A DNA stretch of 64,000 nucleotides from a virus. The DNA lies in IMG/VR virus record IMGVR_UViG_2936028420_000001, positions 1,094 through 65,093 of that record; one strand, given 5' to 3'. Both the position numbers and the translations under genes were made by a program. Below, one piece after another: positions 2,686-34,708 of this stretch. The first letter of the stretch is position 1. Every line of letters begins with the position of its first letter. Under the pieces are notes generated by a model. It worked only from the letters and a program-made list of their open reading frames with translations, made no database searches and was not told the origin of the DNA.

Positions 2686-2843
2686 GGCTTACTCACTGGT
2701 TCGGAAGCGGTGGGTAACCGGTTCGATCCCATGCACGGACCGCATGTGAAGCGATCCGCCTGGGCGGTTGGGCAGCGGAAGGGCTCCCCGCAACTCTCGC
2801 AGGCCCTGGTAACAAACAACACCGGATTGCGGCTGTTGCTCAT
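2682..2843 (-). CDS. Zn-ribbon mini-protein (53 aa, not in ORF track)
   Basis: MSNSRNPVLFVTRACESCGEPFRCPTAQADRFTCGPCMG...; ATGA overlaps at both ends. Confidence 0.6.
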   Translation of the reverse strand: MSNSRNPVLFVTRACESCGEPFRCPTAQADRFTCGPCMGSNRLPTASEPVSKP

Positions 2844-3466
2844 TTCGGCCTCACGTCGAATTTCTGGAGGATGGCGCGGGCAACACCAACATCAAAACTA
2901 CAGCGCTCGCTATCCGTTTCTAGGCAAGCGCACGTGCCGCCCTCGGACTCGCAAATGACCTTGGTCAACTCGGCCTCGCTCACGCCCGAGCACGCTGCCG
3001 GAGTGAGAGCGTCTGATGACGCGATGCTCTCTGAATACAGCAGGCGAACATCTTGAATGTCGGGGGGCGGCGAATAGAACCCCCACACGCGGACAAGCAC
3101 GTTATCGTCACCTTGCGGCGCATATCCGGTCCAAGCGCATGGCGAAAGCTCGGCGGGAACGGTGCGAGCAGCGGCCCATTTGGCGCCAGCGAAGAACCCG
3201 GACCTAGCAGCCTCGTTAGGCAACATTAGCCCGACCGGCGTGCCCTGCTTATTCCATGACCAGTCATCGTAGGCTTGGTCGCAGCCGCTCGCCCCCTGGG
3301 CAGGTGGTTCGCCAATCGGCGCGCCTTCAGGCCATTTGCTGCCGGGTGTCAGGCCAGCTAAATGAACCTTTTTGCGCATGCAAAGGTTCGTCGCGCAGGC
3401 TTCCTTCGCGAAGCCGCATTCGCAGGTTGTCGCCCCTTGGGCAAGAACGTCTTTCTGTTCGCTCAT
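2840..3466 (-). CDS. Hypothetical phage protein
   Basis: Start MSEQKD via ATGA overlap. Confidence 0.6.
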   Translation of the reverse strand: MSEQKDVLAQGATTCECGFAKEACATNLCMRKKVHLAGLTPGSKWPEGAPIGEPPAQGASGCDQAYDDWSWNKQGTPVGLMLPNEAARSGFFAGAKWAAARTVPAELSPCAWTGYAPQGDDNVLVRVWGFYSPPPDIQDVRLLYSESIASSDALTPAACSGVSEAELTKVICESEGGTCACLETDSERCSFDVGVARAILQKFDVRPK

Positions 3467-5219: not shown

Positions 5220-5843
5220 TTACGCCTTTACAAAATTGGTTTCGTCTATGCCGCCTTGGGATGAAGGCGGCGCCATCGACACGTTATTCACAGGCTGGAA
5301 CTGCACAAAATCGTTGGCAGTCACTTCACCATTGGTGACAGCGAAGATCGCTTCCAGCGCGCGCTTGCGCGGCATGGCGCGACCGTAGCGCCAGCTTTCT
5401 ACTGTTCGATCAGAGACATTGATGCCAGCAGCAATCATCTGGTCGGCAAACTTCTGGTTGCTCAACGATTTCGCTTCCAGCCAATTGGAGAAGGTGGTTC
5501 GCATCGGTTTCTTCTCGCTTCCATTGACGCGCTGCGGGTAGTGCAAATCGAGATGACAGCTCCGGCACAGCCACACCACCAAACGGGGCTGGCTATAGTC
5601 AGGATGATGCATCTCAGTGCTGGTGTTTCCGCATTTACACGGTTGCGGAACGAGCGTTCCGCGCTTCCTAGATCGCTTTGAGGAAGCTCTGGTGCGCCGC
5701 CGCGCCTTCTGCTCTGGCGTTAGCGGGTGGGTTTTCCGCCATTCCCGCTGGTATGCGGCGTGGCAGGCCCGGCAAAGGCCGCCAAGCGGTAGCACGCGAT
5801 CTAGCGGCTGTTGGCATCCCGAACAAAGCTGGCTGCGCGCCAT
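5220..5843 (-). CDS. HNH/Zn-finger domain fused to Cro-like HTH regulator
   Basis: N-half CxxC...CxxCH and PCKCG...HHPDYSQP..VWLCRSCH; C-half (from Met at 5504) XRE/Cro HTH ...VSDRTVESWRYGRAMP...TNGEVTANDF. Confidence 0.75.
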   Translation of the reverse strand: MARSQLCSGCQQPLDRVLPLGGLCRACHAAYQREWRKTHPLTPEQKARRRTRASSKRSRKRGTLVPQPCKCGNTSTEMHHPDYSQPRLVVWLCRSCHLDLHYPQRVNGSEKKPMRTTFSNWLEAKSLSNQKFADQMIAAGINVSDRTVESWRYGRAMPRKRALEAIFAVTNGEVTANDFVQFQPVNNVSMAPPSSQGGIDETNFVKA

Positions 5844-6325: not shown

Positions 6326-6670
6326 ATGACAATTGGCTCCAAATCCCCTGAGACCATCCTTCGTGAAGCCCTCGTCCACGCCCAGGACGAGCTTAAGCGC
6401 GTGAACGACCACTACGCCTGCGTTCGCCCGGACGTGCGCGGCGTCGTCGCTGAGGCTCTCGCGGCCGTCCATACGCCGAGCACGGGGAGCGATGAACTGA
6501 TCCCGGCCTTGGATCTGATCGCTGTTATGGCCGGTCAGGCGTGGCTCGACATGACCGGGCACGGCGACGTGACCGAGATGCAGCGTCGGCACACGGTCGG
6601 CCGCATGATCGGCATCAAGAACCTGCTGAACGACGTCATCCTGCCGCGGATCAAGGGGGCGCAGTCGTGA
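6326..6670 (+). CDS. Hypothetical phage protein
   Basis: GGAG RBS, high GC3. Confidence 0.75.
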   Translation: MTIGSKSPETILREALVHAQDELKRVNDHYACVRPDVRGVVAEALAAVHTPSTGSDELIPALDLIAVMAGQAWLDMTGHGDVTEMQRRHTVGRMIGIKNLLNDVILPRIKGAQS

Positions 6671-19789: not shown

Positions 19790-22700
19790 CTAGTGTGATG
19801 GTTGTAGGCGCTGCACTTCCGCGCGAGCGTGGTTCTGCACCTCGCGAATTTTGTCTCTTAGCTCCGTCTCACTCAGGCTCTTGTTCTGGCGCAGGCCCTT
19901 GATCCGCTCATCGGCGCTCTTGAAGATCGATGCCTTGGTGGTCGGTGCCTCGCTCAGGAACTGCCGAGCCTCATCGGTATTGGTGCCGCCCTTCAGGTCT
20001 TTGCGCGCGGAGTTGATGCCTGCCTTGTCGTCGAGCGCCTCTTGCCGCTGTTCGTAATAGAGCGCGCGGTCGGCCTCCGGACCCACCTTGCCGACGAAGC
20101 GGCGCAGGATCGGCGTCTTTTCTGGCTGCCACTCGCCGCCGGTCGCGGTGTTGTAGAGCGTGTCCGCGATGCCCTTGGCGAAGCGGCCGACGCCGCCGGT
20201 GACGGCCTGCAACACATGGTCGATGCTGGCCGGATGTACGTCGATCGCGCCCGGCTGGTAGCTGCTGCCGCCGCTCCATGCGTTGAGGTCTTTCGCGGCT
20301 TCCTTCGAGAACGCGGAATTGCTCTTGAAAGCCTGCGAGGAGTCGGGCCGCACGCCTCGGTTCTTGTCCTGCTCCGGATAGAGCGGCTTGCCGGTCCAGT
20401 CCCGGTTGAACTCGATGTGGAAGGCCGGCCGGAGCGCGGAGGGAATGATATCCATCCACGTCGAGCTCTCCTCGCCCAGCGGGTTGAAGGCGCTCAGGAT
20501 CGAATCCATGATCGCGCTGGCAGCCTTGCCGGGCTTCTCCTTGCCCATCGCGACCGAGACGGCATGCGAGCCGATCACGGCAAACGGCGAGAAGCCGTAG
20601 GGCAGGGGCACCTTCAGATAGCGGTGCCCGCCCATCATGAACACGAGGTTCTTGTCGCGGTCCCAACTCGGGATCTTCATATAGTCGGAGACGCCGGCCT
20701 CGTCCGTGTCGCTGGCGAGGATCGAGTACAGCGTCGAGAGGGCGGCAGCTGCCGCGAGCGCGCCGACGGCCTGCCACACCCGGCGGTGACCGAGCGCGGT
20801 GGTCATGCGGGCGATGCCCTGGACGCCAGCATTGGCGAACATATAGAGCGCGGAGATGGCACTGCCGAGCTCGCCCTTCTTGTTGAAGTCGACCGTCAGG
20901 TTGCGCGCGAGCATCGCGGCGTCGGCCGTCGGGATTCCAGCTTCCTCCGCGGCCATGAAGGCGGCGAGGCGGGTTGCGTTCTCGATTCCGCCGCCGGCCA
21001 CCTCCAGCGCCTTGCCGGCCTTGTCGCCGATATCCTTGAGGGTGTTGACCGGGCCGCCCTCGAGCCGCTTGAGCTTCCGGCCCACGTTGGTCTCGATGGC
21101 GTCCGGATCCTCGATGCCGAAGAAGCGCACCCGGCCGCCCGCCTTGTCGAACCGGTGGAAGGCGTCGACATAGGGATCACCCGGCGCGGCGCCGGCGATG
21201 GCCTTCATTGATCCCTTCATCGCGCCCGGGATGTGCTTGATGAAGTTGCGGACGAAGCCGCGCTGCTGCTGCGCCTGCAGGTTGATGAACGCCTCGCCCA
21301 TGTCGCGGGCGAAGTTCGGAATCATGAACTCCGGATTGAACGAGGTGGCGAGCTTTGCCATCGTGTGAGTGATCGCGGAATAGGCCCGGATCAGCGCGTG
21401 GACGTTGGCGGTGCCCATGTTCTTGAGGCCGCGCGCCAGATTGAGCCCGTCGGGCCCGTGCAGCGCGATCGTGATGGTGCGGCCGTCAACCTTGGTCGAG
21501 AACTCGTTGTCCTTCAGCGCCGGCATGTTGTCGGGGATGGTGGTCACGAGCCCGGTATTCGGGTCGATCCGCTTAATGGGCTGCCGGCGGTTGATGGTCC
21601 AGCGGGCCGGATCAGGGTTGGCGCGGACAAATTGCAGGAAGGTGTTGCCCACACGGTTCTTTTCGGCCCTGACGATCGCCATCTCGGCTTGCATGATCGA
21701 GTAGGCGAGGGGAGAGGCGGCATCTGACTTGCGGCCGAAGGCGTTCTTGGCCTCCTTGCCGCGCACGTTCATGCCGCTGCCCTGGCGCGACATGGAGGCC
21801 TCGTCCTCGCTGCCGTCGGCCCAGCCGCGGAGCGGGACGTAATACTTGTAGCCGTTGTTCCAGGCATCGAAGGTGTCACGATCGATCAGACCGGCATCGA
21901 ACAGGGTGCGGCGGGTCTTGGCGTTGAGCGCGTCGATCATGCGGGCGACGGCGAGATAGTCCGGCAGTTTGCCAGCGTTCCGCAGGTCGCGGATGACCTG
22001 TAGTGCCTCGTTGGTCGACCAGCCGGAGCCGCCGACCTTATCGTGGTCCCTGATGGCATCGTAGAAGTCGTGGCCGGGCGTGTACATGGTGCCGATCGCG
22101 TTGTTGCGCTCGGGCGCGTGGCGGGCCTTGAGGAAGTTGTCGAGCTTCTCCACGTCGATGTCGCGCGCCTTCATCTCTCGGATGAGGGGATCGATGTGGT
22201 TCTCGGTCAGGGATTCCAGCCGCTGGCCGGTGCGGCCGTAGTACAGGCTCTCGGCCTGATACGCTGACTGGCTCGATGGCGCTCCAACCGACTCCTCGGC
22301 CTTCTTGACCCGCAGGAACTTGTCCTGCAGCTGCACGCGGATCTCGGTAGCGTTGATGTGACCCAGGCGACCGAGCAGCCGCGTGCGCAGGATGTCGGCG
22401 ATGGTGTTGTCGAAGGAGTTGGGGCCGCCCGGCTGGAAGGCGTTCGGTGGAGCGTTTAGCCCCAATCCCCCTTCTTCTTCTCGCGGATGGTCCGCTCGGC
22501 CAGCTTGATCGCCGCGTCGCGTCCCGCCGTCGGTTGCAGGGAACGCATTTCGGTCAAAAACTGCTCCCACGTCTCCAGGGTGTCGAACGGCCCGGGCGGG
22601 TCGATCATGTACTCGGCTGGCTTCATGGTTGGTCAGGCCCTTCTTGATGAGATCGGCGGCCTCGCTGATCGCTGTATCTATGCCGGGAACGCGCGATCGG

Positions 22701-25700
22701 AAGTCCGCATCGTCGAAATTCGTCCGATAGTCAATGAACCCGGCATCGTTGAGCACCACGTTGATGAGGTGGTGGTAGGCCGCGTTACCCTCGTCGGCAT
22801 TGATGGAGCCGGCGAGGAATGCCTCTCTGAGGGGCATTTTGAGCCGCCCTCCGATCGCAGCCGTCAGTCGCGCCACCTGATTGACCCGTGCAGTCCATTG
22901 CTCGGGCAGCATGGCCTTCGCGGTCGGGGTAACCTCGACACGGTAGGTGATGCCGTTGTGCCCGTGGGCGTAGACCGCGCGCATGCCGGGCGTGCTGGCC
23001 ATGGCGATGTCGGAATCGCTGAAGCTCCTCGACTCCGGGTGATTGTGGTGCGCGACGATATCCTCGGTGGGGTCGAGCAGGCGCGCGTAGAAGGCCGGCG
23101 AGATCGCGATGAAGCCCTTTGTGCCCTTGATGTCGCCATTGTCGACGACGTTGCCATGAGCGTCGTAGGCCATCAGATGCTCGGTGCTGGTCTCGCGGCC
23201 ATGCTGCAGAACATGCTTCTGGCCGGTTTCACCAAGCCGCCGCGCTTCGGGCGCCGGCGCCACATAGGCCCGCACGAGCCGATCCATGACGGCATCAGTC
23301 TCGGCACTCGCCAGCCCGGGCCCTGGACCATCGCCGCCCGGACCCTTGCCGGCCATCTGATCGAGGAACTTCTGGCGGTCCTCGGCCGACTTGAACTGGA
23401 AGCCCGGGATGGCGCCGTTGCCCTTGAAGCTGGAATAGTAGCCGCCGTTGGCCTTCGCCACGGCATTCATCTGGCTATAGGCGGTGCTCTCGACGCGCTC
23501 GTTCGCGGTCGCGACATAGAGCTTCGCCTTGGTCTTGGCGTGGATGGTCTCTCCGGTTTTGAAGGTGATGCCCTTCGGCGCGCTCGGCGGCGCGCCCGGT
23601 GCCCGTTGTGTCTCGGCCGGCTCCGGCTTGGCGACGGCATCGAGGAATTTCTGGCGCTCCTCGGTGGTGCCGAAACGGAAGCTTTTGGCGGTCTTGACGT
23701 ACTCGCCCTTGGTGGTCTCGACCGCTCGCATTAGCGCGCGGAATCGCTCCGGCCCGATGAAATTCTTGAGGTCGGCCGCGTGCACGTCGCCGCGCTTGCT
23801 GCTCTGCAAGGTGAAGTCGACGCCGTTGATGGTGACCTTGCCCTCGGTCGGGATGTCGATGTCGGGGGTTGCCGGCTCGAGCCGCTGGCCCATGTCGGCG
23901 TTCTCGATGCGATCGAATAGGTCGCCGATGGTCTCGACGTCGCTATAGTCGCGGCTCTTTTGCTGCAACTGCTTGGCGATATGAGCGTCGGTCTGCTTCT
24001 CCAACACGACGATGCGGGCCGAGATCGACGTGCCCGCGCGCTCGAAGGTGATCGCCGGCAGGTTCACGTCGCCGACGATATAGATGCCCTTGGCGGCCGG
24101 GCCATCCATGAACTTGTCGAACTTCGCGTCGGTTGATCCGCGCGAAATCAGCGCAACAATACGGCCGCCGTTCTTCAGGTGGCTCGCCGCCTTCTCCAGA
24201 TGGTCGATCGCGGTCTTACCGCCGGAGCCGAACGGCGGGTTCATCACGATGGCGTCGAACTTGTTGGCGCCCTTGTCGAGATTCTCGAAGCGGTCGACGA
24301 CGACGCGCGCGCCGGGCGAGGTCAGCGCCGCGCGGCTGGCGAGCGAGCTCGACGGCTCCACCAGGGTGCGCGCGGTGTCCTCGGGGAAGTAGCGCGCGAT
24401 GGCGCCGTGCCCGGCCGACGGCTCAAGGATCTTCTCGCCTGATTTGATACCGGCGAACTCGACCATCTTGAGGCCGATCGGCTCCGGCGTGGCGTAATAG
24501 TCAGTACCCTCGCGCTGATCGCGCCGGCCGGTGGTCTTGCCGTTCGCGAAATAGTGCGTCTTGGCCTTGTCGAATTCTGAGACGCTGTGCGAAAGCGCGC
24601 GGTCGATCTCCTTGCCGCCCTTGCCTTCGCCCGGCTCCGGTGCGAAGTCCCCGGCGCCGGAGAAGGCGTCGATGAAGGATTGCCGGATGGTGCGGGCCTG
24701 ATCGCCCAGGGCGAGGTTTTCCGCGGTGCCGGCGCGCTCCGCGATCTTGCCGGCGAACGTCCAGCGCTCCCAATCGGTGCCGGTGTTCATGTAGCGGAAG
24801 ATCGCATCGGACGACTGGCCGACGCGATAGATGCGGCCTTCCTGCTGGATCGAGGTGGTCGGCCGGATCGGCATACCGAGATTGAGCAGCACGCGCTGCT
24901 TCTTGCCGGTGGTGTCGTGCAGGCTGATGCCCGCCTCGCCAGCGGCCGACTGCACGATGATGATGTCGCGGCCGGAGTTGTCGTCGTTGAACAGTGCCTT
25001 GTCCAGATTCCGAACCTTGTTCGAGACGGTGCCGTTGTAGACCATGGCGTCGGGGAATGCCTTGGTCAGCTCGGCGATCGGCGCGTCATAGTCCGAGAAC
25101 TTCAGATCCTTGATGTACGGATTCTGCGCGCGGAAATCGTCGTAGAGGTCTTTCAGTTTCACCTCAGACGGTTTGCCATCCACGTAGGTGGTGACCTTGA
25201 CCGACGGCGGTACCGCGAGATCGAATGGGTTGATGCCGCCGCCCTCGTTATAGTCGTGGAACACCACGATCTTTCGGCCGAGATCGAGGGACTGCCGGAT
25301 GAACGGGACCGCCGCGCGCGCCTTGATGGCTTCGAGCAGACGCATGCGCGTCAGATAGTCGAACTGTTTCGAGATGACTTCGTGCAGCGGCCGGTACCGG
25401 CCGCCCTCGGCCTCCTGAAGGAAGCTGAGGGCTTGGTCGATCTGTTGGCCGACGGCATCGTGTGCGAGCACGAACTTGCGGTCATAGTCCTTGTCCACGG
25501 TCAGCGCTCGGCCGGACAGCGAGCCCTGCTTCTTCAGGTACTCGTGAAGCTGGCGCTCCATCACCTCGGATTTGACATCGGCGTCCGGCTTGGTGAGCCG
25601 GTTGGTCCGCATCCGGTAGCCGAGATGCTGCATGTAGAACGCGGCGCGGCCGTCGCCGGAATTGTAGCGCGATCCGGAGCGGTCCTTGTCGAACTCGAAC

Positions 25701-28700
25701 AGGTACCCCTCGGCATAGTCGAGGGAGAAGTGATATGCGAACGGCGTCGCGCTCATGAACAGCGCCTTGGGGCGCTGCTCGTCCCGCCACTTTTCGATCA
25801 GCGGCGCGGCTTTCTTCTCGAACGCTGCATAGGCCGCGCCCTGTTCGTTCTTCGGCAGATGCTCGATGCGGTCATAGTCGGCGCGCAGCACCATGCGGGC
25901 GCGCTCCGTCAGACCATCAGGGTGCTTGGTGATGGCGCGAAGCGTGCGCAGTGCTTCAGTGACGGTACCGTTCTGATCGGACGAAAGCTTGTGCGCCTCA
26001 TCCGGAACGACCAGATCCCACTCGCGATCAGCGAGCGTACGGTTGGCACCGAGATTGGCATAGGTGGTGCCGACCAGACCTTTTCGACCATTGCTCGCGG
26101 TGTCGTCGAGCACCCGCATGTCGAGACCAAGGTCTTTGGCCGACTTCACCCAATCCATCAGGATGCCCTGCGAGGGCGCGACCACCAGGGTGTTCGTCTT
26201 GCCCTTCATCGCGAAGCGCTTGATGACGCCCAGGCCGGAATAGGTCTTGCCGGTACCGGTGCCGTTGGTGAACAGCATGCCGTGGCCGTCGGGCTTCGCG
26301 TAGCGCTGCTCGGCTTTCTGCACGTCGGTGTGCTGCTCGGGGAACAGCATCGGCAGCGTGTCGGCAATGTTGCCGAGGTCGCCGGGCTTGACCGCGATGC
26401 CTTCGGCCTTGCGCTGACGCTCGCGGCGCGCGTTTAGGTCGGCGTCTTTTTGAGCATTTCGGACAGCTTCATCAGTTGCCCCGTCGTCAAACGAAAATCC
26501 CTTCTCGCTATCGTGAGAGCTTCGGCTCGACTCTCGATCGGCGGGATCGCTACCCTCATCGACGGGTTCGCGAGCAGGAAGTTCGAGATGGCCTGATGCT
26601 CCCACAACAGGGGCATGATCTTGAGGTACGCGCTCGCCACTTGCGGGTCGTTCGTCTCCCGCGTCAGCCGGGCTTCCTCGTTCTCCAGCGCCTTGTCCAG
26701 TTGATCCTGCGGCAGCGGGAACATCTGCTTTGCCCAATCCGTCGCGAGCTTCTGGCTCTCCGCGATCTGATTCCAGTACGTCGCTGCGGCTTGGTGCATC
26801 GATAGTCTCCTTGCCGGAGGTCACGTCCTCGGTGAACCGGCGAATATACGGCTTCATCGCCCGGATGGCGTCAGCATCCATGCCGGCGACGCTCAGATGG
26901 CGCACCAGCGCCCGCACCATGGTGGCGAGATCGGCACCACCGCCACTGAAATGCGCTACGCCAGCCTTGAAGAAGGGCAGGGCCTGCCGGTATTTGTCGT
27001 CATCGAGCGTGAACGGCTGCTCGCCCTCGGCTAGACCTTTGTCCTTGCCGAACAGTTTGCCAAGCCCTTTTGCCACCTGATCGATGTCAAGTGACATTTT
27101 TGGCGCGAATTCTGCGTCAATCGCCTGATCGAAGATGTCGTCGAAGGCGTCCTTCGGCGGAGCCGGCGGCTTCTTGGCCACCATGTCGAGCAGGTCGGTC
27201 TGCTTGTGACCATCGCCGAACAGGCCGTCGTCGGCCGCCTTCTGGTTGGCCTTCGGCTTGAGCGGTGCATCGGCGCCGCGCTGCGCCATGGTCTTGTCGG
27301 CGGCCTTCTCGGCGCCTGGAATGACGGTCTGCTGCTTGTTGTCGGCGCCGGTCTCGGTGATGACGGCCGGTTTCTTCGGCTCGCCGCCCGGCGGAGTGAT
27401 GTTCTCGCCCGGAGTACCCCACTGCACATTAAGATGATTTCCAGCAACGGGCGCTGTAACGAACATGACGTGCTTGCGATCAGGAGACCACAGCGCTGAT
27501 CCCTTGCCGTATTTCGCCTGAGTCCAACCGCGTGATTCCGCCGTGCTGCCGAAAAGCTCTGCGCTTGTGGTCGGTGCGATATCCGTGTCCATACGTCCGG
27601 CGGCGATCTCGCTCTCGACGTGATCGAGGAAGGAGTCGACCGTCTCTTTGCTCTCGGGCTTCGGCGGAGTGGCGCGAACCGGCGACTGTGCTTCTTCGCC
27701 GCGGAGCCGGCGCCGCGCCTCGATCATCATGGCGCGCGCGGCTTCGCGTCCGAACACTTCCTCGTAGCTGGCGGCGGTATCGACGGCCTCGCGTCCATAG
27801 GTGGAGCGCTCGCCCTGCAATGCCTTGATGGCATCCTCGGGCTTCTGCTTCTTCTTGAGCTTGGCCTTGCCGCTGCGGATGTCGGCGATCTTCTCGTCGA
27901 TCGCACGCACCTGGGACAACGCGGACATGATGCCGTTCATGCCCTCGTCGACGACGCCGACAACATTCTCGACGTCGAAGTGCTCGCCATCCTCGATATC
28001 GAAAACCGAGCGGCCCTCGCGTGCGAGTGCATCGAGCACCTTCGGGTCAGGTGCTGGCCATGTGTCGTTGAAGTCCCACGGGCCCTTGCGCGAGAGCGTG
28101 ACGTGCACGGTCTCGTCGCTGTCTCCGGCTGGAATGTCGGCGCTGGTACCGTCTAGATCGCGGAGGGATCGCTCGGCTTCGGCGGAATCTTCGGCGCGGC
28201 CTTCGCGACCTGTACGGGCGGCGTTGCTGCCGGTGTCGGGCTGTTCGCCTTTGGCGTCGGGCTCGGTGCGTCCGGCGTCATTCCGCCGGTCCCCGCCTTC
28301 TGCGCCAGCAACCGCGTCGCCTGGGCGAGGCTCGCGAGGCGCAGCTTCTTCAGGCCCGTGGCCTTCTGCGCCTTCGCGTGCAAGGTTGTCGCCATAGCCT
28401 GATGCTGCTTGCGCGTAAATCTCATCGTCAACCTCGTGACCATAGATAGCATGGAATTCGGCCTGCGCATCCTTTTCTTCGGAGATCAGCTGCATGACCG
28501 CCGTTTCGACCGCCTCGGGCGCGTCGAGCTCGGTCGACGACATCAGTTGCAGCGCGCGCGCCTTGATCTCCGGCGCCAAGTGGCCGTGGCCGGTGCGCTC
28601 GAGCGCATCGACGAACTCTTGGATCTTCGCTTCTTCGTGAGCGCCGCGTTCAGCCTCGGCTGATTGCTCGGCCTTGGTCTTGGTGTCCTCGTGGCCTTCC

Positions 28701-31700
28701 GGATAGCGATGCTGTCCGCGGATTCCGTCATCGATCGCGTCGAGAAATTCCGCGACCGTGCTGGTGCCTTCGGCGGAGCCTCGGAAATAGCCTGCTTCCT
28801 CGGCCGCCTCGCGCGCGCGGTCGAGATCCATGCCGCCATCTTTGACCAGCTTGCGGCGGGGCGGGAACCCCTGCATCGCGACGGAATGCTTGTGGGCATC
28901 CATCACCGCGAGTTCCGGATGCGGCTTCAGGCCGCCCTTGCTGGCGATGAATTGGAGCAGGTTTTGGGGCTCTTTCGCGCCCGTTTTTGCCGTTTTGTCC
29001 CGGCCGCGCCCTTGTTGCGGTGCAGCAGGTTCCGAACCTATGTTATTGACTACGGCCGGAGTCGCCTGTTTGGTACCGGCTAGGGCAGCATCTTTAGGAA
29101 GCGAAGGGTTACCCCCCAGCGCATCTTGGCCGCCCTGTAAGGCCTTGTCCGGAGTGTGATGGCTCTCGGATTTGGTTAAGGCGGGCTCCGGAGTGTGATG
29201 GCTCTCGGGGCCCGCCGCACCAATCTCTTTGACCGGTTTCGTTGTGTCGGTTTGCAACCAAGCCTGAAACTTCTCAGGCGTCATTGCAACAACGTGACCA
29301 ATGCGACTTTCGCCGTGGTCACTGTACGAATCCGCATAGGCCCGCATCGCTGCATCGGGCCCTGGGAATCCGATCATAATCTTGTGTTCATCCCACGCGC
29401 CCGTTTTCGGGTCGTGCTGATCGATGACGAAGATATCGCCGCCGGGCCCAAGATGTACGTCGAGCGGCTGACCGTCGCCGCCGACTGTGCCCTTAATCCG
29501 ACCGTAAGGGTACTTGAGCGTGACCTCCCACGGATTACCGTCTGGATCGACGCCTTTACGAACTTGCCCGGCGCCGGTCTCGACCGAGATCGAGTGCTTG
29601 CCGACAAGCCCGAGAGCGGGGATTTCAAGGTGAGTGTGCCGGTAGTTTTCAGCTTCCGCCTGGGCCTGCGATTTAGGCTCGTCAGGCCGCGCCTTCATCG
29701 CGGCATCGATATGCTCGACGGACTCAACTCGGATTGGTTTGTCGCGAGTGCCGGCGCCTAACTCGGGAGAAACTTCCCGTCCGGCCCGTGTTGCATCGGC
29801 GGCGGCTGATTTCTCGTCGGAGAGAGAAGCTTGTTCGGAGACGTCATTCCTCGACGCAACCGCTGCCTGATCGCCCCCTTCGACAGCCCCATTCTGATTG
29901 CCGCTTGCGATGCGTTTTCCGTCACCCCATTCACTGTTACCATCACGACGTTCCTGCGGTTCTCCGCCTGCTGGGCTCTTGTCGCCCACTGCATGTTCCC
30001 CGGAACGTAACCCTTGTCGTTCTCGATCCGATCCAGCGACAGATCGGGGCTCGGACGTCGACCCACCGCCATCAAGAACGTCGGGAAGTCGTTTTCCCAC
30101 TCCAGAGCCATCTTGATCCCCCTCGCTCCGTAGTTCTTGTACGCGTGATCCGTCGGGTTGTTGCACCTCCCCTTGATGTTCTTCCAGATCTTGTATTCCG
30201 GCAGCCTGCTCATCCCGTGCTTGGTTGGGTACGTCATTCTTCTCTCCCGGCGATGGTCGCGACCTGCCAGTTTTCATGGCGGCCTGATACGCCTTGCTCC
30301 GCTGTTCCGGAGTCATAGCCTTGACCCAAGATGGGTCCCAGCCCTTCGCAATCAAGGCATCGCGCTCTGCTCGATCAGTCGCAACAGCCTCGCGAGCGGC
30401 TTTTTCGTCTGCGGTTTCCGGCTTCGCCGTATACCCCGTGGACGAAGTATCCCTCATCTGTTCATTCACAGCATTGAACAGATCGGCGTCCGACATCTTG
30501 CTGACGTCGACGCTCGGATCGAACATCCGGTGCAGCTTCTCCATCTTCGCGCGCATCCGCGCGTCCATGGTGTAGTCCGCACCCATGCCCTCGCCGGTGC
30601 CGGGGGGCGGCTTGCCGGGCTCGGGGCCCTGTCCGGATCGCTGGTTGGATTGTTGGTTGCCCGCACCGCCTGGCCCAGGCTGAGGGCCGCCGCCGGGATT
30701 GGGGCCAGCGCCAGCCGCTCCAGCCTGATCGTCCCAGCCACGGCGCTGCCAGTCGCGGGCTTCCTGCTCGGCGCGCGCGCGGGCCGCATCCGGTCCCGGG
30801 CCGCCCATGTCGGGTCCGCCGCCAGGGAGCGCGCCGCCCGGCGCCGGGGAGGCGCCGCTAGTGTCGCTGGAGGTGTCCTGCCGGGTCTCCGGGCCCCTGC
30901 GCTCGAACGCATGATGCAGGCCGCCCATGCCGGCGCCGAGGATCAATTCCGCGATGATGCGCTTCTGATCGAGTGTGTAGCCAGCCTTCGGATCGTAGTC
31001 CTTGGCGATCTCTTGGAGGATGGCTTCCTGCGCCTCGCCGAGCGTCGTGAATGCGGCAGCGGAGACCGCGACCTTCGCGATCAGGCCCTGCGCATATTTG
31101 CCGGCACCGAGCGGCAGGCTGCCGAGCACGCCGGCGACCAGGGCGGACTTCGCCGCCGTCGCATTGGCCTCGTCGTCGGTCTTGCCTGCGGCCTTCGATG
31201 CCTCGAAGACGCTGCCGTAGGTGTCGAGCGCCATGCCGCTGGCGGCGGCGGTAAGACCGACCAGCGGGCCTGCGGCGAGCGTCGCTGCACCATAAGCGGC
31301 GATCGAGCCCGCGCCGGTACCGATCCGGCCGCCGATTGAATCCTTCTCCTGCGGCGTCATCGGCGCGACGGTTTGCGCAAAATCCTGTGTTGCCTGTCCT
31401 GCCTTGTAGAGCGTGCGATCCTGCAGCGGCTTCGCCGGTACCGCGGCGGCCGGCGCATTGACCATGCCGGTGGCATTGCCCATGGCGTCGTACTGCGGCG
31501 TCTCAGGCTGCTCGGGGATGCCGTTGTCGTACAGCGCGGCCGCGCCCTTGAGCGTGCCGCCAGCAGTCGAGATCGCGCCGTGCGGGATGCCCTTGGCGGC
31601 CGCGACCGCCTGCCGGCTGATCGTGAGCGGCGGGACTTCCGGACCTTCCGGCGTGACGGGCGTGCCGAACTTGGAGAGGTCATCCGTCGACGGCTCGGGC

Positions 31701-31942
31701 GCGGCCTCGTCCTTGACCTTCGTGCCAAAGCTTGAGAGGTCCGGCCCCTTCGGCTCGTCCGGTGCGACGTTGAAATCGACGTTGGAATCGCGCGTCGGCT
31801 TGATCGAGAGCTTACGCGCCAGCCGATCGGTCAGAACCTTGGGGTTCGACGAATACGGCTGGCCGTCGTCCGGCTGATACTGCTCGAGCAGGCTATCGCG
31901 AAGCTGGGATTGTCCCGATCCGAAAACGTCGTCGAAGGCCAT
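19790..31942 (-). CDS. Giant polyvalent DarB-like ejection protein: InPase-like, SF2 helicase, N6-MTase, JAB, LPD38-like domains
   Basis: 4050 aa. InPase-like ~29270-29690 (YGRIKGTVGGDGQPLDV..DEHKIMIGF); helicase NGTGTGKT/DEAH/SATP and QQEGRIYR ~24750-26330; MTase EPSAGHG/NPPF ~23990-24520; JAB HNHP..S..D ~22960-23260; C-terminal ENATRLAAF..ARNLTVDFNKKG. Confidence 0.9.
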   Translation of the reverse strand: MAFDDVFGSGQSQLRDSLLEQYQPDDGQPYSSNPKVLTDRLARKLSIKPTRDSNVDFNVAPDEPKGPDLSSFGTKVKDEAAPEPSTDDLSKFGTPVTPEGPEVPPLTISRQAVAAAKGIPHGAISTAGGTLKGAAALYDNGIPEQPETPQYDAMGNATGMVNAPAAAVPAKPLQDRTLYKAGQATQDFAQTVAPMTPQEKDSIGGRIGTGAGSIAAYGAATLAAGPLVGLTAAASGMALDTYGSVFEASKAAGKTDDEANATAAKSALVAGVLGSLPLGAGKYAQGLIAKVAVSAAAFTTLGEAQEAILQEIAKDYDPKAGYTLDQKRIIAELILGAGMGGLHHAFERRGPETRQDTSSDTSGASPAPGGALPGGGPDMGGPGPDAARARAEQEARDWQRRGWDDQAGAAGAGPNPGGGPQPGPGGAGNQQSNQRSGQGPEPGKPPPGTGEGMGADYTMDARMRAKMEKLHRMFDPSVDVSKMSDADLFNAVNEQMRDTSSTGYTAKPETADEKAAREAVATDRAERDALIAKGWDPSWVKAMTPEQRSKAYQAAMKTGRSRPSPGEKNDVPNQARDEQAAGIQDLEEHQGEVQQPDGSRVQELRSEGDQDGSGVGKRLPDVLDGGGSTSEPRSVAGSDRERQGLRSGEHAVGDKSPAGGEPQERRDGNSEWGDGKRIASGNQNGAVEGGDQAAVASRNDVSEQASLSDEKSAAADATRAGREVSPELGAGTRDKPIRVESVEHIDAAMKARPDEPKSQAQAEAENYRHTHLEIPALGLVGKHSISVETGAGQVRKGVDPDGNPWEVTLKYPYGRIKGTVGGDGQPLDVHLGPGGDIFVIDQHDPKTGAWDEHKIMIGFPGPDAAMRAYADSYSDHGESRIGHVVAMTPEKFQAWLQTDTTKPVKEIGAAGPESHHTPEPALTKSESHHTPDKALQGGQDALGGNPSLPKDAALAGTKQATPAVVNNIGSEPAAPQQGRGRDKTAKTGAKEPQNLLQFIASKGGLKPHPELAVMDAHKHSVAMQGFPPRRKLVKDGGMDLDRAREAAEEAGYFRGSAEGTSTVAEFLDAIDDGIRGQHRYPEGHEDTKTKAEQSAEAERGAHEEAKIQEFVDALERTGHGHLAPEIKARALQLMSSTELDAPEAVETAVMQLISEEKDAQAEFHAIYGHEVDDEIYAQAASGYGDNLAREGAEGHGPEEAAPREPRPGDAVAGAEGGDRRNDAGRTEPDAKGEQPDTGSNAARTGREGRAEDSAEAERSLRDLDGTSADIPAGDSDETVHVTLSRKGPWDFNDTWPAPDPKVLDALAREGRSVFDIEDGEHFDVENVVGVVDEGMNGIMSALSQVRAIDEKIADIRSGKAKLKKKQKPEDAIKALQGERSTYGREAVDTAASYEEVFGREAARAMMIEARRRLRGEEAQSPVRATPPKPESKETVDSFLDHVESEIAAGRMDTDIAPTTSAELFGSTAESRGWTQAKYGKGSALWSPDRKHVMFVTAPVAGNHLNVQWGTPGENITPPGGEPKKPAVITETGADNKQQTVIPGAEKAADKTMAQRGADAPLKPKANQKAADDGLFGDGHKQTDLLDMVAKKPPAPPKDAFDDIFDQAIDAEFAPKMSLDIDQVAKGLGKLFGKDKGLAEGEQPFTLDDDKYRQALPFFKAGVAHFSGGGADLATMVRALVRHLSVAGMDADAIRAMKPYIRRFTEDVTSGKETIDAPSRSDVLESDRGEPEARDGLGKADVPAAAGSTGQGAGERGSPADAGDERPASGERVPQDHAPVVGASGHLELPAREPVDEGSDPADRESSRSSHDSEKGFSFDDGATDEAVRNAQKDADLNARRERQRKAEGIAVKPGDLGNIADTLPMLFPEQHTDVQKAEQRYAKPDGHGMLFTNGTGTGKTYSGLGVIKRFAMKGKTNTLVVAPSQGILMDWVKSAKDLGLDMRVLDDTASNGRKGLVGTTYANLGANRTLADREWDLVVPDEAHKLSSDQNGTVTEALRTLRAITKHPDGLTERARMVLRADYDRIEHLPKNEQGAAYAAFEKKAAPLIEKWRDEQRPKALFMSATPFAYHFSLDYAEGYLFEFDKDRSGSRYNSGDGRAAFYMQHLGYRMRTNRLTKPDADVKSEVMERQLHEYLKKQGSLSGRALTVDKDYDRKFVLAHDAVGQQIDQALSFLQEAEGGRYRPLHEVISKQFDYLTRMRLLEAIKARAAVPFIRQSLDLGRKIVVFHDYNEGGGINPFDLAVPPSVKVTTYVDGKPSEVKLKDLYDDFRAQNPYIKDLKFSDYDAPIAELTKAFPDAMVYNGTVSNKVRNLDKALFNDDNSGRDIIIVQSAAGEAGISLHDTTGKKQRVLLNLGMPIRPTTSIQQEGRIYRVGQSSDAIFRYMNTGTDWERWTFAGKIAERAGTAENLALGDQARTIRQSFIDAFSGAGDFAPEPGEGKGGKEIDRALSHSVSEFDKAKTHYFANGKTTGRRDQREGTDYYATPEPIGLKMVEFAGIKSGEKILEPSAGHGAIARYFPEDTARTLVEPSSSLASRAALTSPGARVVVDRFENLDKGANKFDAIVMNPPFGSGGKTAIDHLEKAASHLKNGGRIVALISRGSTDAKFDKFMDGPAAKGIYIVGDVNLPAITFERAGTSISARIVVLEKQTDAHIAKQLQQKSRDYSDVETIGDLFDRIENADMGQRLEPATPDIDIPTEGKVTINGVDFTLQSSKRGDVHAADLKNFIGPERFRALMRAVETTKGEYVKTAKSFRFGTTEERQKFLDAVAKPEPAETQRAPGAPPSAPKGITFKTGETIHAKTKAKLYVATANERVESTAYSQMNAVAKANGGYYSSFKGNGAIPGFQFKSAEDRQKFLDQMAGKGPGGDGPGPGLASAETDAVMDRLVRAYVAPAPEARRLGETGQKHVLQHGRETSTEHLMAYDAHGNVVDNGDIKGTKGFIAISPAFYARLLDPTEDIVAHHNHPESRSFSDSDIAMASTPGMRAVYAHGHNGITYRVEVTPTAKAMLPEQWTARVNQVARLTAAIGGRLKMPLREAFLAGSINADEGNAAYHHLINVVLNDAGFIDYRTNFDDADFRSRVPGIDTAISEAADLIKKGLTNHEASRVHDRPARAVRHPGDVGAVFDRNAFPATDGGTRRGDQAGRADHPREEEGGLGLNAPPNAFQPGGPNSFDNTIADILRTRLLGRLGHINATEIRVQLQDKFLRVKKAEESVGAPSSQSAYQAESLYYGRTGQRLESLTENHIDPLIREMKARDIDVEKLDNFLKARHAPERNNAIGTMYTPGHDFYDAIRDHDKVGGSGWSTNEALQVIRDLRNAGKLPDYLAVARMIDALNAKTRRTLFDAGLIDRDTFDAWNNGYKYYVPLRGWADGSEDEASMSRQGSGMNVRGKEAKNAFGRKSDAASPLAYSIMQAEMAIVRAEKNRVGNTFLQFVRANPDPARWTINRRQPIKRIDPNTGLVTTIPDNMPALKDNEFSTKVDGRTITIALHGPDGLNLARGLKNMGTANVHALIRAYSAITHTMAKLATSFNPEFMIPNFARDMGEAFINLQAQQQRGFVRNFIKHIPGAMKGSMKAIAGAAPGDPYVDAFHRFDKAGGRVRFFGIEDPDAIETNVGRKLKRLEGGPVNTLKDIGDKAGKALEVAGGGIENATRLAAFMAAEEAGIPTADAAMLARNLTVDFNKKGELGSAISALYMFANAGVQGIARMTTALGHRRVWQAVGALAAAAALSTLYSILASDTDEAGVSDYMKIPSWDRDKNLVFMMGGHRYLKVPLPYGFSPFAVIGSHAVSVAMGKEKPGKAASAIMDSILSAFNPLGEESSTWMDIIPSALRPAFHIEFNRDWTGKPLYPEQDKNRGVRPDSSQAFKSNSAFSKEAAKDLNAWSGGSSYQPGAIDVHPASIDHVLQAVTGGVGRFAKGIADTLYNTATGGEWQPEKTPILRRFVGKVGPEADRALYYEQRQEALDDKAGINSARKDLKGGTNTDEARQFLSEAPTTKASIFKSADERIKGLRQNKSLSETELRDKIREVQNHARAEVQRLQPSH
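22456..22626 (-). CDS. Nested 56-aa protein in +1 frame of giant gene (not in ORF track)
   Basis: MKPAEYMIDPPGPFDTLETWEQFLTEMRSLQPTAGRDAAIKLAERTIREKKKGDWG; GC3-rich in nested frame. Confidence 0.6.
   Translation of the reverse strand: MKPAEYMIDPPGPFDTLETWEQFLTEMRSLQPTAGRDAAIKLAERTIREKKKGDWG
26434..26799 (-). CDS. Nested 121-aa helical protein in +1 frame of giant gene
   Basis: AAGGAG-7 nt-ATG; natural globular composition; GC3-rich in nested frame. Confidence 0.75.
   Translation of the reverse strand: MHQAAATYWNQIAESQKLATDWAKQMFPLPQDQLDKALENEEARLTRETNDPQVASAYLKIMPLLWEHQAISNFLLANPSMRVAIPPIESRAEALTIARRDFRLTTGQLMKLSEMLKKTPT
28153..28425 (-). CDS. Nested 90-aa basic protein in +1 frame of giant gene
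   Basis: GAGG-6 nt-ATG; MRFTRKQHQAMATTLHAKAQK...; codon bias favours nested frame. Confidence 0.55.
   Translation of the reverse strand: MRFTRKQHQAMATTLHAKAQKATGLKKLRLASLAQATRLLAQKAGTGGMTPDAPSPTPKANSPTPAATPPVQVAKAAPKIPPKPSDPSAI
29758..30237 (-). CDS. Nested HNH homing-endonuclease-like gene in +1 frame of giant gene
   Basis: YKNYGARGI...SLDRIENDKGYVPGNMQWATRAQQAENRR plus C-terminal HTH-like part; GGGAG RBS. Confidence 0.85.
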   Translation of the reverse strand: MTYPTKHGMSRLPEYKIWKNIKGRCNNPTDHAYKNYGARGIKMALEWENDFPTFLMAVGRRPSPDLSLDRIENDKGYVPGNMQWATRAQQAENRRNVVMVTVNGVTENASQAAIRMGLSKGAIRQRLRRGMTSPNKLLSPTRNQPPPMQHGPDGKFLPS

Positions 31943-34177: not shown

Positions 34178-34708
34178 TCAGTTCCTCCCCTTCAAGAGGT
34201 ATTTGGCAGCCATCGATAGGCGGGATGGGTCGTCGCTAAAATTTCCGATGCCGACGTTACAGGGACTACAAAGCAGACCGCGCACTTTCCCGGTGGTGTG
34301 GTCGTGGTCGACGCATAGAAATTTGTAGTGCTCGGGGCCCGGCTTATCGGTGCGACAGATCGCACAACGGCCGCCCTGAGCGAGCAGCATCTCGTCGTAA
34401 TCCGCCTGCGTCATTTTGTAGAAGCGCCTGAGCATATACTTGCGATCGCGCTCAGGATTTTTTTGACGTTCTTCCCTGTGGTACGTCGACATGCACACCT
34501 TGCATCGGGGGCGAAAGCCATCCTTGCACCCCGGATGAGGTCCAAATTCAGAGAGGGGCTTCTCCTCTTTGCATTCCTTGCAAATCTTAATTCCGGGCGG
34601 AACGGGCCTCGCAGAACGCTCCGCAAGACGAACGCGCTGATAGTGCTTGTTGCACAAACCTCGGCCAAATCTCGGCCGTTCGCATTCAGGTTGTGTGCAG
34701 ATCAACAT
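34178..34708 (-). CDS. Endonuclease VII-family homing endonuclease
   Basis: CAIC...LCVDHDHTTGKVRGLLCSPCNVGIG plus N-terminal Zn fingers. Confidence 0.85.
   Translation of the reverse strand: MLICTQPECERPRFGRGLCNKHYQRVRLAERSARPVPPGIKICKECKEEKPLSEFGPHPGCKDGFRPRCKVCMSTYHREERQKNPERDRKYMLRRFYKMTQADYDEMLLAQGGRCAICRTDKPGPEHYKFLCVDHDHTTGKVRGLLCSPCNVGIGNFSDDPSRLSMAAKYLLKGRN

Follow-up and report, generated by a model that had tools for sequence, protein, structure and literature searches.

In the nrdA gene of Aeromonas phage Aeh1 the free-standing endonuclease gene mobE is lodged within the coding sequence with neither intron nor intein, and the host is split into two polypeptides that reassemble. 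Open reading frames (ORFs) of the HNH type, hidden out of frame in mycobacteriophage methylase genes with the host frame left open, have been described more recently by Arsenault, Gosselin and Gogarten (2025, Genes 16:178, PMC11855218). The reported cases are the ShiLan domain, a 195-aa HNH endonuclease within the DNA methylase gp65, and Pacc40 gp60, and both lack intron and intein features. A hidden ORF of this kind is found in a stretch of 64,000 nucleotides (hereafter the window) of the IMG/VR provirus record IMGVR_UViG_2936028420_000001, which is 67 kb long; the window spans positions 1,094 to 65,093 of the record, and all coordinates refer to the window unless a locus is named. The ORF encodes an HNH-like endonuclease and lies inside a giant phage gene, whose frame, unlike that of nrdA, is continuous.

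The hidden ORF (29758..30237, minus strand) has 159 codons, starts with ATG, ends with TAG and is wholly contained in the giant ORF (19790..31942, minus strand), which the ORF list and the translation indicate to be a polyvalent, 'DarB-like' virion-protein gene of 4050 codons. The two starts are 1705 nt apart (1705 mod 3 = 1), which places the hidden ORF in the +1 frame, each giant codon beginning 1 nt ahead of a hidden-ORF codon. The product matches the PHROG families phrog_3377 (E 2.3e-45) and phrog_374 (E 2.5e-36), both named 'HNH endonuclease'. A Shine-Dalgarno-like GGGAGAG (30242..30248, minus strand), read in the giant frame as part of '...PGEKN...', is located 4 nt before the ATG. This motif and the phrog_3377 match confirm what the initial annotation of the window had seen, an HNH-like gene with its own ribosome-binding site wholly inside the giant ORF. 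Having a Shine-Dalgarno and an ATG of its own, the endonuclease can be made by internal initiation. A promoter scan around the hidden ORF detected no sigma-70-like site, and there is hence no evidence of a separate transcript. Purine-rich Shine-Dalgarno-like motifs also precede the ATG of other embedded copies described below (L005, L008, GP4, L250-L252). The arrangement is not an assembly artefact, because two contigs of other soil metagenomes (X4 and X6) span both junctions with 0 differences.

The hidden-ORF protein is homologous to the interior of Pacc40 gene 60 (tblastn, 41.9% identity over residues 6-91, E 4e-13). The read-through strategy is therefore a known one, and the endonuclease family is the same. 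The Pacc40 ORF is similarly about 160 aa long, occupies a non-host frame of the coding strand, and corresponds to a disordered in-frame product with no assigned function (PMC11855218). The hosts differ, being a 1341-codon actinophage helicase plus DNA methylase in Pacc40 and the 4050-codon polyvalent gene of a proteobacterial-type prophage in the window, and the relative frames are +2 and +1, respectively. In Pacc40 no ribosome-binding site was recognized and leaderless initiation was proposed by the authors, whereas the window ORF has a clear Shine-Dalgarno (PMC11855218). ShiLan resembles the window in hosting an out-of-frame homing-type endonuclease which adds no stop to the host, is scattered among related phages and features no splicing signatures (PMC11855218). 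In contrast to the window ORF, which has an ATG start and no canonical histidine, the ShiLan nuclease starts with GTG and is a canonical HNH carrying two zinc fingers; for the ShiLan in-frame product a hairpin-like structure within an enzyme domain is predicted (PMC11855218), while in the window an inter-domain linker is extended. Stop avoidance was not tested statistically in the ShiLan and Pacc40 study (PMC11855218), and is so tested here. The initial annotation had stated that homing endonucleases avoid harming their hosts only as introns, inteins or intergenic genes, a view outdated by the read-through cases published in 2025, and had taken the hidden ORF for a different strategy, a translated linker in another frame. 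The linker interpretation is supported by the data reported below, but the strategy is not new (PMC11855218). The window case differs from those published in the giant polyvalent host gene, the inter-domain linker site, the clear Shine-Dalgarno, the occurrence at several sites in one host-gene family, and the statistics for stop purging.

Insertion in the linker before the InPase domain

More than 15 relatives of the giant protein, 2300-4800 residues long, combine the N-terminal module with the InPase domain in a single polypeptide. In the window the InPase domain is encoded at 29252..29668 on the minus strand (aa 759-897; Pfam PF18823, E 3.4e-34). Alignment with 14 relatives defines an upstream conserved flank (30248..30319, minus strand; aa 542-565, 'AMTPEQR...TGRSRPSP'), directly after which comes the left insert junction. 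The downstream conserved flank 'GTRDKPIRV', recognized from alignment and sequence (29726..29752, minus strand; aa 731-739), leads to the InPase domain, and the TAG of the hidden ORF is 2 codons ahead of its 'GTRDKPI'. In aligned insert-less relatives the 'AMTPEQR' region is joined to a 'GTR(D/E)xPI' motif by a short variable linker. Query residues ~560 to ~730 are bridged by 13-40 residues in P0010, P0008, P0007, P0020, P0014 and P0016, versus ~165 here, and most relatives of the giant protein are without about 150-165 residues at exactly the site of the hidden ORF. The segment is found at this site in a single relative (P0003/L005), is missing in more than 10, and is located elsewhere in others. 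Relatives lacking the insert, which the initial annotation had considered as the means to define the junctions, thus exist; the precise junctions are not definable from them. An unrelated segment of ordinary mixed composition occupies the same linker site in P0017 (residues ~510-730), and P0071 apparently contains two passenger-like segments in tandem (residues ~560-750, protein only). These two proteins suggest that sequence gain has a general hot spot in the linker.

The N-terminal module was also sought as a stand-alone protein. The single match is a frameshifted giant gene without the endonuclease, and since the module is never met alone, a stop in the insert region would probably be costly. 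In the matching locus (L257:7737-7900) the frameshift falls in the InPase-coding region of an insert-less relative, which is called in consequence as a 674-residue protein. The frameshift is either a sequencing error or the mark of a pseudogene, and the 'AMAGS'-'GTREEPI' linker is only ~20 residues long.

No Rfam family matched the 29000-31000 region at E <= 1. The insert exceeds the hidden ORF by less than ~30 nt, in which a ribozyme core would not fit, and group I and group II introns are accordingly rejected. A stop-free frame speaks against an intron also because removal at the RNA level would put no pressure on the host frame to stay open. No Hint or intein domain was detected by the Pfam scan of the giant protein. 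The insert flanks, 'SRPSPGEKN' and 'SPELGAGTRDK', lack a terminal His-Asn preceding Cys, Ser or Thr, and the peptide that the insert adds to the giant protein is predicted to be unstructured (predicted local distance difference test score, pLDDT, <50). An intein was rejected on these three grounds. The failure of the initial annotation to see intron structures or intein ends is thus borne out by the Rfam and Pfam scans. An imperfect direct repeat of 24 nt (29829-29852 and 30219-30242, 79% identity, 390 nt apart) was considered as a candidate insert-flanking repeat. One copy spans the ATG; the repeat was judged to be probably fortuitous, as the other is inside the conserved C-terminal 'RGMTSPNK' region of the endonuclease.

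Stop codons in the host frame

The giant-frame codons 569-728 (29759..30238, minus strand), which overlap the hidden ORF and encode what is called here the passenger segment, include 0 stops, in agreement with the ~160 stop-free codons initially annotated; the third sense frame has 8. When the codons of the hidden ORF are permuted, the giant frame acquires a mean of 4.6 stops, and the probability of none is 0.0036 (codon permutation as a whole gave 0.002-0.006); with shuffled synonymous codons the mean is 3.7 stops and the probability 0.0086. A survey of three collections (viral, metagenomic and genomic contigs) yielded 233 unique homologues. The frame equivalent to the giant frame is open in just five of these, and in another that is cut short by a contig end. 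ORFs of 678-1244 codons contain four of the five, whereas that of L221 (72% G+C) has only 392 codons and may be due to chance. The comparison with free-standing homologues proposed in the initial annotation was made at similar base composition (G+C 0.55-0.65), the frame being open in 0/51, with a mean of ~5 stops. The two shuffles and the homologue survey rule out that the giant frame is open by chance.

A stop in the host frame arises solely where a codon ending in T precedes a codon starting with AA, AG or GA, and such at-risk dicodons have been counted. T is found at the third position before AA, AG or GA codons in 0/301 instances in eight embedded genes, against 16% elsewhere in the same genes and 13.5% before AA, AG or GA codons in free-standing homologues (G+C 0.55-0.66). 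The lack of stops in the giant frame is beyond chance, and the avoidance of stops is selected. Two homologues, L176 (3001-3417) and L232 (3001-3396), lack stops in the remaining sense frame (+1 with respect to the endonuclease), which is part of an 886-codon ORF in the former and of a 1074-codon ORF in the latter; either alternate sense frame can thus serve for embedding. An antisense frame free of stops across the endonuclease ORF was noticed in 24/233 homologue loci (for example L012, L015, L060 and L185), some of which may be antisense-embedded.

The passenger segment is hydrophilic and predicted to be disordered. Hydrophobic residues account for 13% of it, and G, S, P, E, Q, K, R, D, N and A together for 84%. 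The peptide NDVPNQARDEQAAGIQDLEEH, singled out in the initial annotation, corresponds to giant-frame residues 569-589. In an AlphaFold2 (AF2) model of aa 470-900, residues 568-726 have no secondary structure and pLDDT <50, and both flanks fold (pLDDT ~86-95). Passenger peptides of different phages are 31-45% similar, a similarity which is the shadow of endonuclease conservation. Nucleotide identity decreases from the second to the first to the third codon position of the endonuclease frame in 5/6 pairs of embedded copies, including all pairs with L005 or L008; in the exception, the window-GP4 pair, the third position (0.58) is slightly above the first (0.57). This pattern indicates that the endonuclease is the conserved protein, and that the giant frame bears only the constraint of having no stops.

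Embedded copies, encoded nuclease and host gene

Intact ORFs homologous to the hidden ORF, in the +1 frame of an open host frame, have been found in other giant genes. The copy in P0003/L005 is at the same site as in the window. That in P0006/L008 is at a different one, just before the conserved 'LLQFIAS', and those in P0062/L250, P0063/L251 and P0066/L252 directly follow the InPase domain. Copies in the cultured Ralstonia phages GP4 (gp68) and Gamede (gp42) are at yet another site of DarB-like genes. A search of 1.84 billion representative proteins with the passenger peptide retrieved 13 clusters, mostly giant InPase/LPD38 proteins. Passenger-like segments directly after InPase were recognized at the protein level in P0062, P0063, P0065-P0067, P0070 and P0072-P0074; L250-L252 are the three matches of this search which were checked on DNA. 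In the window and in many other polyvalent genes, embedded copies are thus neighbours of the conserved InPase domain. A stop-free host frame recurs in at least eight DNA-checked instances at several sites, and this is understandable only with translation of the host frame across the insert. A tblastn search of 243 homologue loci with the giant protein found no polyvalent fragments beside free-standing copies.

The L008 insert is flanked by an imperfect direct repeat of 25 nt (5805-5829 and 6396-6420, 72% identity), with a spacing of 591 nt or 197 codons. Translated in the host frame, the upstream copy gives 'DHLNLVLF' and the copy at the conserved downstream junction 'EPLNLLQF'. The repeat is reminiscent of ShiLan, where the insert begins with a mimic of the sequence following the insertion site.

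Inteins of phage DNA polymerase genes also harbour homologues of the hidden ORF, again out of frame and without closing the intein frame (L064 and L084). The L064 gene (60-3737) encodes a family-A DNA polymerase with apparently two inteins, of which the ends are 'CLHGDT...IVHNC' and 'CLAKGT...IVHNC'. Two intact HNH-like ORFs (1340-2074 and 3010-3432) are each out of frame in an intein, one in the +2 and one in the +1 frame. L084 (603-3749) has the same organization with a single ORF (2791-3435). The read-through peptide would leave these polymerases with the intein by protein splicing. No intein surrounds the window insert, and its passenger peptide should therefore stay in the mature protein.

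The AF2 model of the hidden-ORF product, obtained with 71 homologues, has a mean pLDDT of 90.8. Two strands (67-70 and 82-85) are followed by a helix (87-92) and by a small helical C-terminal domain. The top Foldseek match, to I-HmuI, is weak (E 0.064, below the safe level of the tool), and a fold search of the Swiss-Prot part of AlphaFold DB gave nothing useful. In an exhaustive structural alignment against 48,161 PDB representatives the restriction enzyme PacI ranked first (root mean square deviation 3.8 Å over 82 residues, 21% identity), and was the only chain with Z >= 5, its score of 5.6 being modest and below the safe level of the tool. The C-terminal part of the model resembles the DNA-binding domain of I-TevI (Z 2.9). 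Nine residues are invariant in the family (C25, Y36, R39, G40, F54, R70, Y77, N81 and N93), and all are present in the window ORF. R70 is on the predicted strand 67-70, presumably at the position held by a histidine in HNH_3, and Tyr77 is in the loop between the two predicted strands. PacI (PDB 3ldy/3m7k), assigned to group 20 of the His-Me finger nucleases, is similarly devoid of a catalytic histidine, which is replaced by a tyrosine in an omega-loop (Jablonska et al. 2017, PMC5714182). By analogy, Tyr77 may substitute for histidine in the hidden-ORF product. PacI is a dimeric restriction enzyme with two zinc sites, and the fold match is modest. Taken together, the model points to a PacI-like His-Me finger endonuclease carrying a C-terminal helix-turn-helix, with a predicted nuclease activity.

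The host protein fits the description of polyvalent, 'DarB-like' proteins, as judged from its sequence: several enzymatic and LPD domains are joined in one chain encoded in the virion module, and a location in the virion is predicted. In addition to InPase, the Pfam scan identified LPD38 (1.9e-45, aa 3753-3946), a ResIII/SNF2-like helicase (1.7e-09, ~aa 1866-2415), Helicase_C_4 and a methyltransferase domain (~aa 2505-2601). Relatives bear ART-PolyVal, LPD1, RadC and MuF_C domains, and the GP4 homologue is annotated as DarB-like. The gene is part of a late structural module, with portal, terminase and tail-fibre genes on one side and an endolysin gene on the other, a setting that it shares with the DarB-like gene of GP4. 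The structural block also contains, upstream of the giant gene, a free-standing ORF that resembles endonuclease VII (176 codons; 34178-34708, minus strand; phrog_2633, E 8e-42).

Alternative explanations and significance

The data are best explained by the insertion of a homing endonuclease gene that lies out of frame and is tolerated as a translated linker, an interpretation which is probably correct. A mobile gene of the free-standing type would have entered the variable, disordered linker between the N-terminal module and the InPase domain. As a +1-frame gene of the coding strand, equipped with a Shine-Dalgarno and an ATG, it would be expressed by internal initiation on the late mRNA. The giant gene would be neither split nor spliced, and the linker already present would be lengthened by ~160 hydrophilic, unstructured residues as ribosomes read through. 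Selection would keep the giant frame open by purging T-ending codons ahead of codons starting with AA, AG or GA in the endonuclease frame, and the amino acid sequence conserved across the insert would be that of the endonuclease.

Several observations weigh against this explanation. Pfam, NCBIfam and PDB profile searches of the hidden ORF give no HNH match, and only PHROG families are so named; the canonical catalytic histidine is absent, and the core contains no invariant histidine. An empty allele of this phage was sought in metagenome runs, but the sequence is identical in 4/4 soil metagenomes, with the insert present and no joints, and the nearest insert-less relatives, sharing only ~45-80% amino acid identity, are too distant to define exact junctions or a target site. 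The GP4 and Gamede segment (L089:8935-9620) does not offer a clean empty site either, because a different segment is found at its place in the phages Gerry, YL3 and p2110 (L253, L254 and L255). The alternative segment has a ParB-like 'DGHHQ' motif and flanks ~90-95% identical, and one module thus takes the place of another, instead of being simply present or absent. In some embedded copies T-ending codons are few overall, and the individual shuffle probabilities of these copies are weak (P = 0.30 for L250). Many of the additional instances were retrieved as long unbroken proteins, a procedure biased against finding broken host genes. Lastly, the sequencing runs that hold the window sequence are DNA only, and no RNA run was found.

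Some of these points would suit a relic, or a domesticated gene: an old insertion no longer capable of homing, kept as a neutral linker or for a role in packaging, recombination or anti-defence. The same-site copies of the window and L005 share only 49% amino acid identity, which denotes an old insertion, and the lack of an empty allele in the four metagenomes and of the canonical histidine are in line with decay. The ORF is, however, intact in its Shine-Dalgarno, ATG, family-invariant residues and confidently predicted fold, and the substitution pattern fits purifying selection on the endonuclease frame. PacI shows that a tyrosine can replace the histidine, and a scattered distribution over at least four polyvalent-gene sites, inteins and hundreds of free-standing loci is what mobile endonuclease genes typically show. 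A relic is on the whole unlikely. Even less probable is that the segment is removed after all, by an unrecognized self-splicing RNA, by unconventional protein splicing or by proteolysis, to leave a mature giant protein without it. In its favour, polyvalent proteins might be cleaved in their linkers. Against removal stand the Rfam result and a non-ORF part too short for a ribozyme core, the lack of Hint blocks and of a predicted fold in the passenger, and the absence of T at all 301 at-risk dicodons, for which RNA splicing would not select.

It is hardly credible that the giant ORF consists of two genes, one of 560 codons for the N-terminal module and one of 3300 codons, separated by a free-standing endonuclease gene and joined in frame by G+C-rich chance. 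Long spurious ORFs are common in a window of 60-65% G+C, but the chance of an open frame is ~0.004-0.009, and none of the 51 free-standing homologues of comparable composition has one. The two parts form one insert-less protein in the >15 relatives mentioned, and the first does not occur by itself. Moreover, since there is no stop in the giant frame, ribosomes starting at 31942 must read through the insert.

With an out-of-frame endonuclease tolerated as a translated linker, the read-through strategy described in 2025 for two methylases of actinophages reaches the giant polyvalent virion proteins encoded by phages and prophages whose hosts are of Gram-negative type. Further gains are a quantitative mark of selection, the total loss of T-ending codons before codons starting with AA, AG or GA, and evidence that the same endonuclease family lives out of frame in inteins. 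Searching with passenger peptides is a practical way to detect further cases, and in the cultured carriers GP4 and Gamede splicing, read-through, internal initiation and homing are directly testable. Gene callers overlook such ORFs, and behind an odd low-complexity 'linker' of a giant phage protein there can be a hidden gene, of which the linker is the shadow.

A tree of the endonuclease family (198 rows) places the window ORF as sister to the L005 copy. The copies of GP4, L250, L251 and L252 form a clade with a Shimodaira-Hasegawa-like approximate likelihood ratio (SH-aLRT) support of 99, which spans two host sites (GP4 versus L250-L252), and L008 stands apart. The label 'embedded in a polyvalent gene' requires three changes on the tree, versus 6.9 in shuffles, and all polyvalent-embedded copies are in the same relative frame. 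The tree fits, and does not prove, the spread of an already embedded, frame-proofed element. It is conceivable, though somewhat doubtful, that the stop-free alternate frame is a heritable adaptation of a PacI-like endonuclease lineage specialized for translated sequence, which would move with a 'pre-proofed', hydrophilic and stop-free -1 frame and need no repair after insertion. The niches of such a lineage might be, equally tentatively, disordered linkers in polyvalent proteins and mini-intein loops. If true, this would represent a distinct life-style of homing elements, in which splicing is not required.

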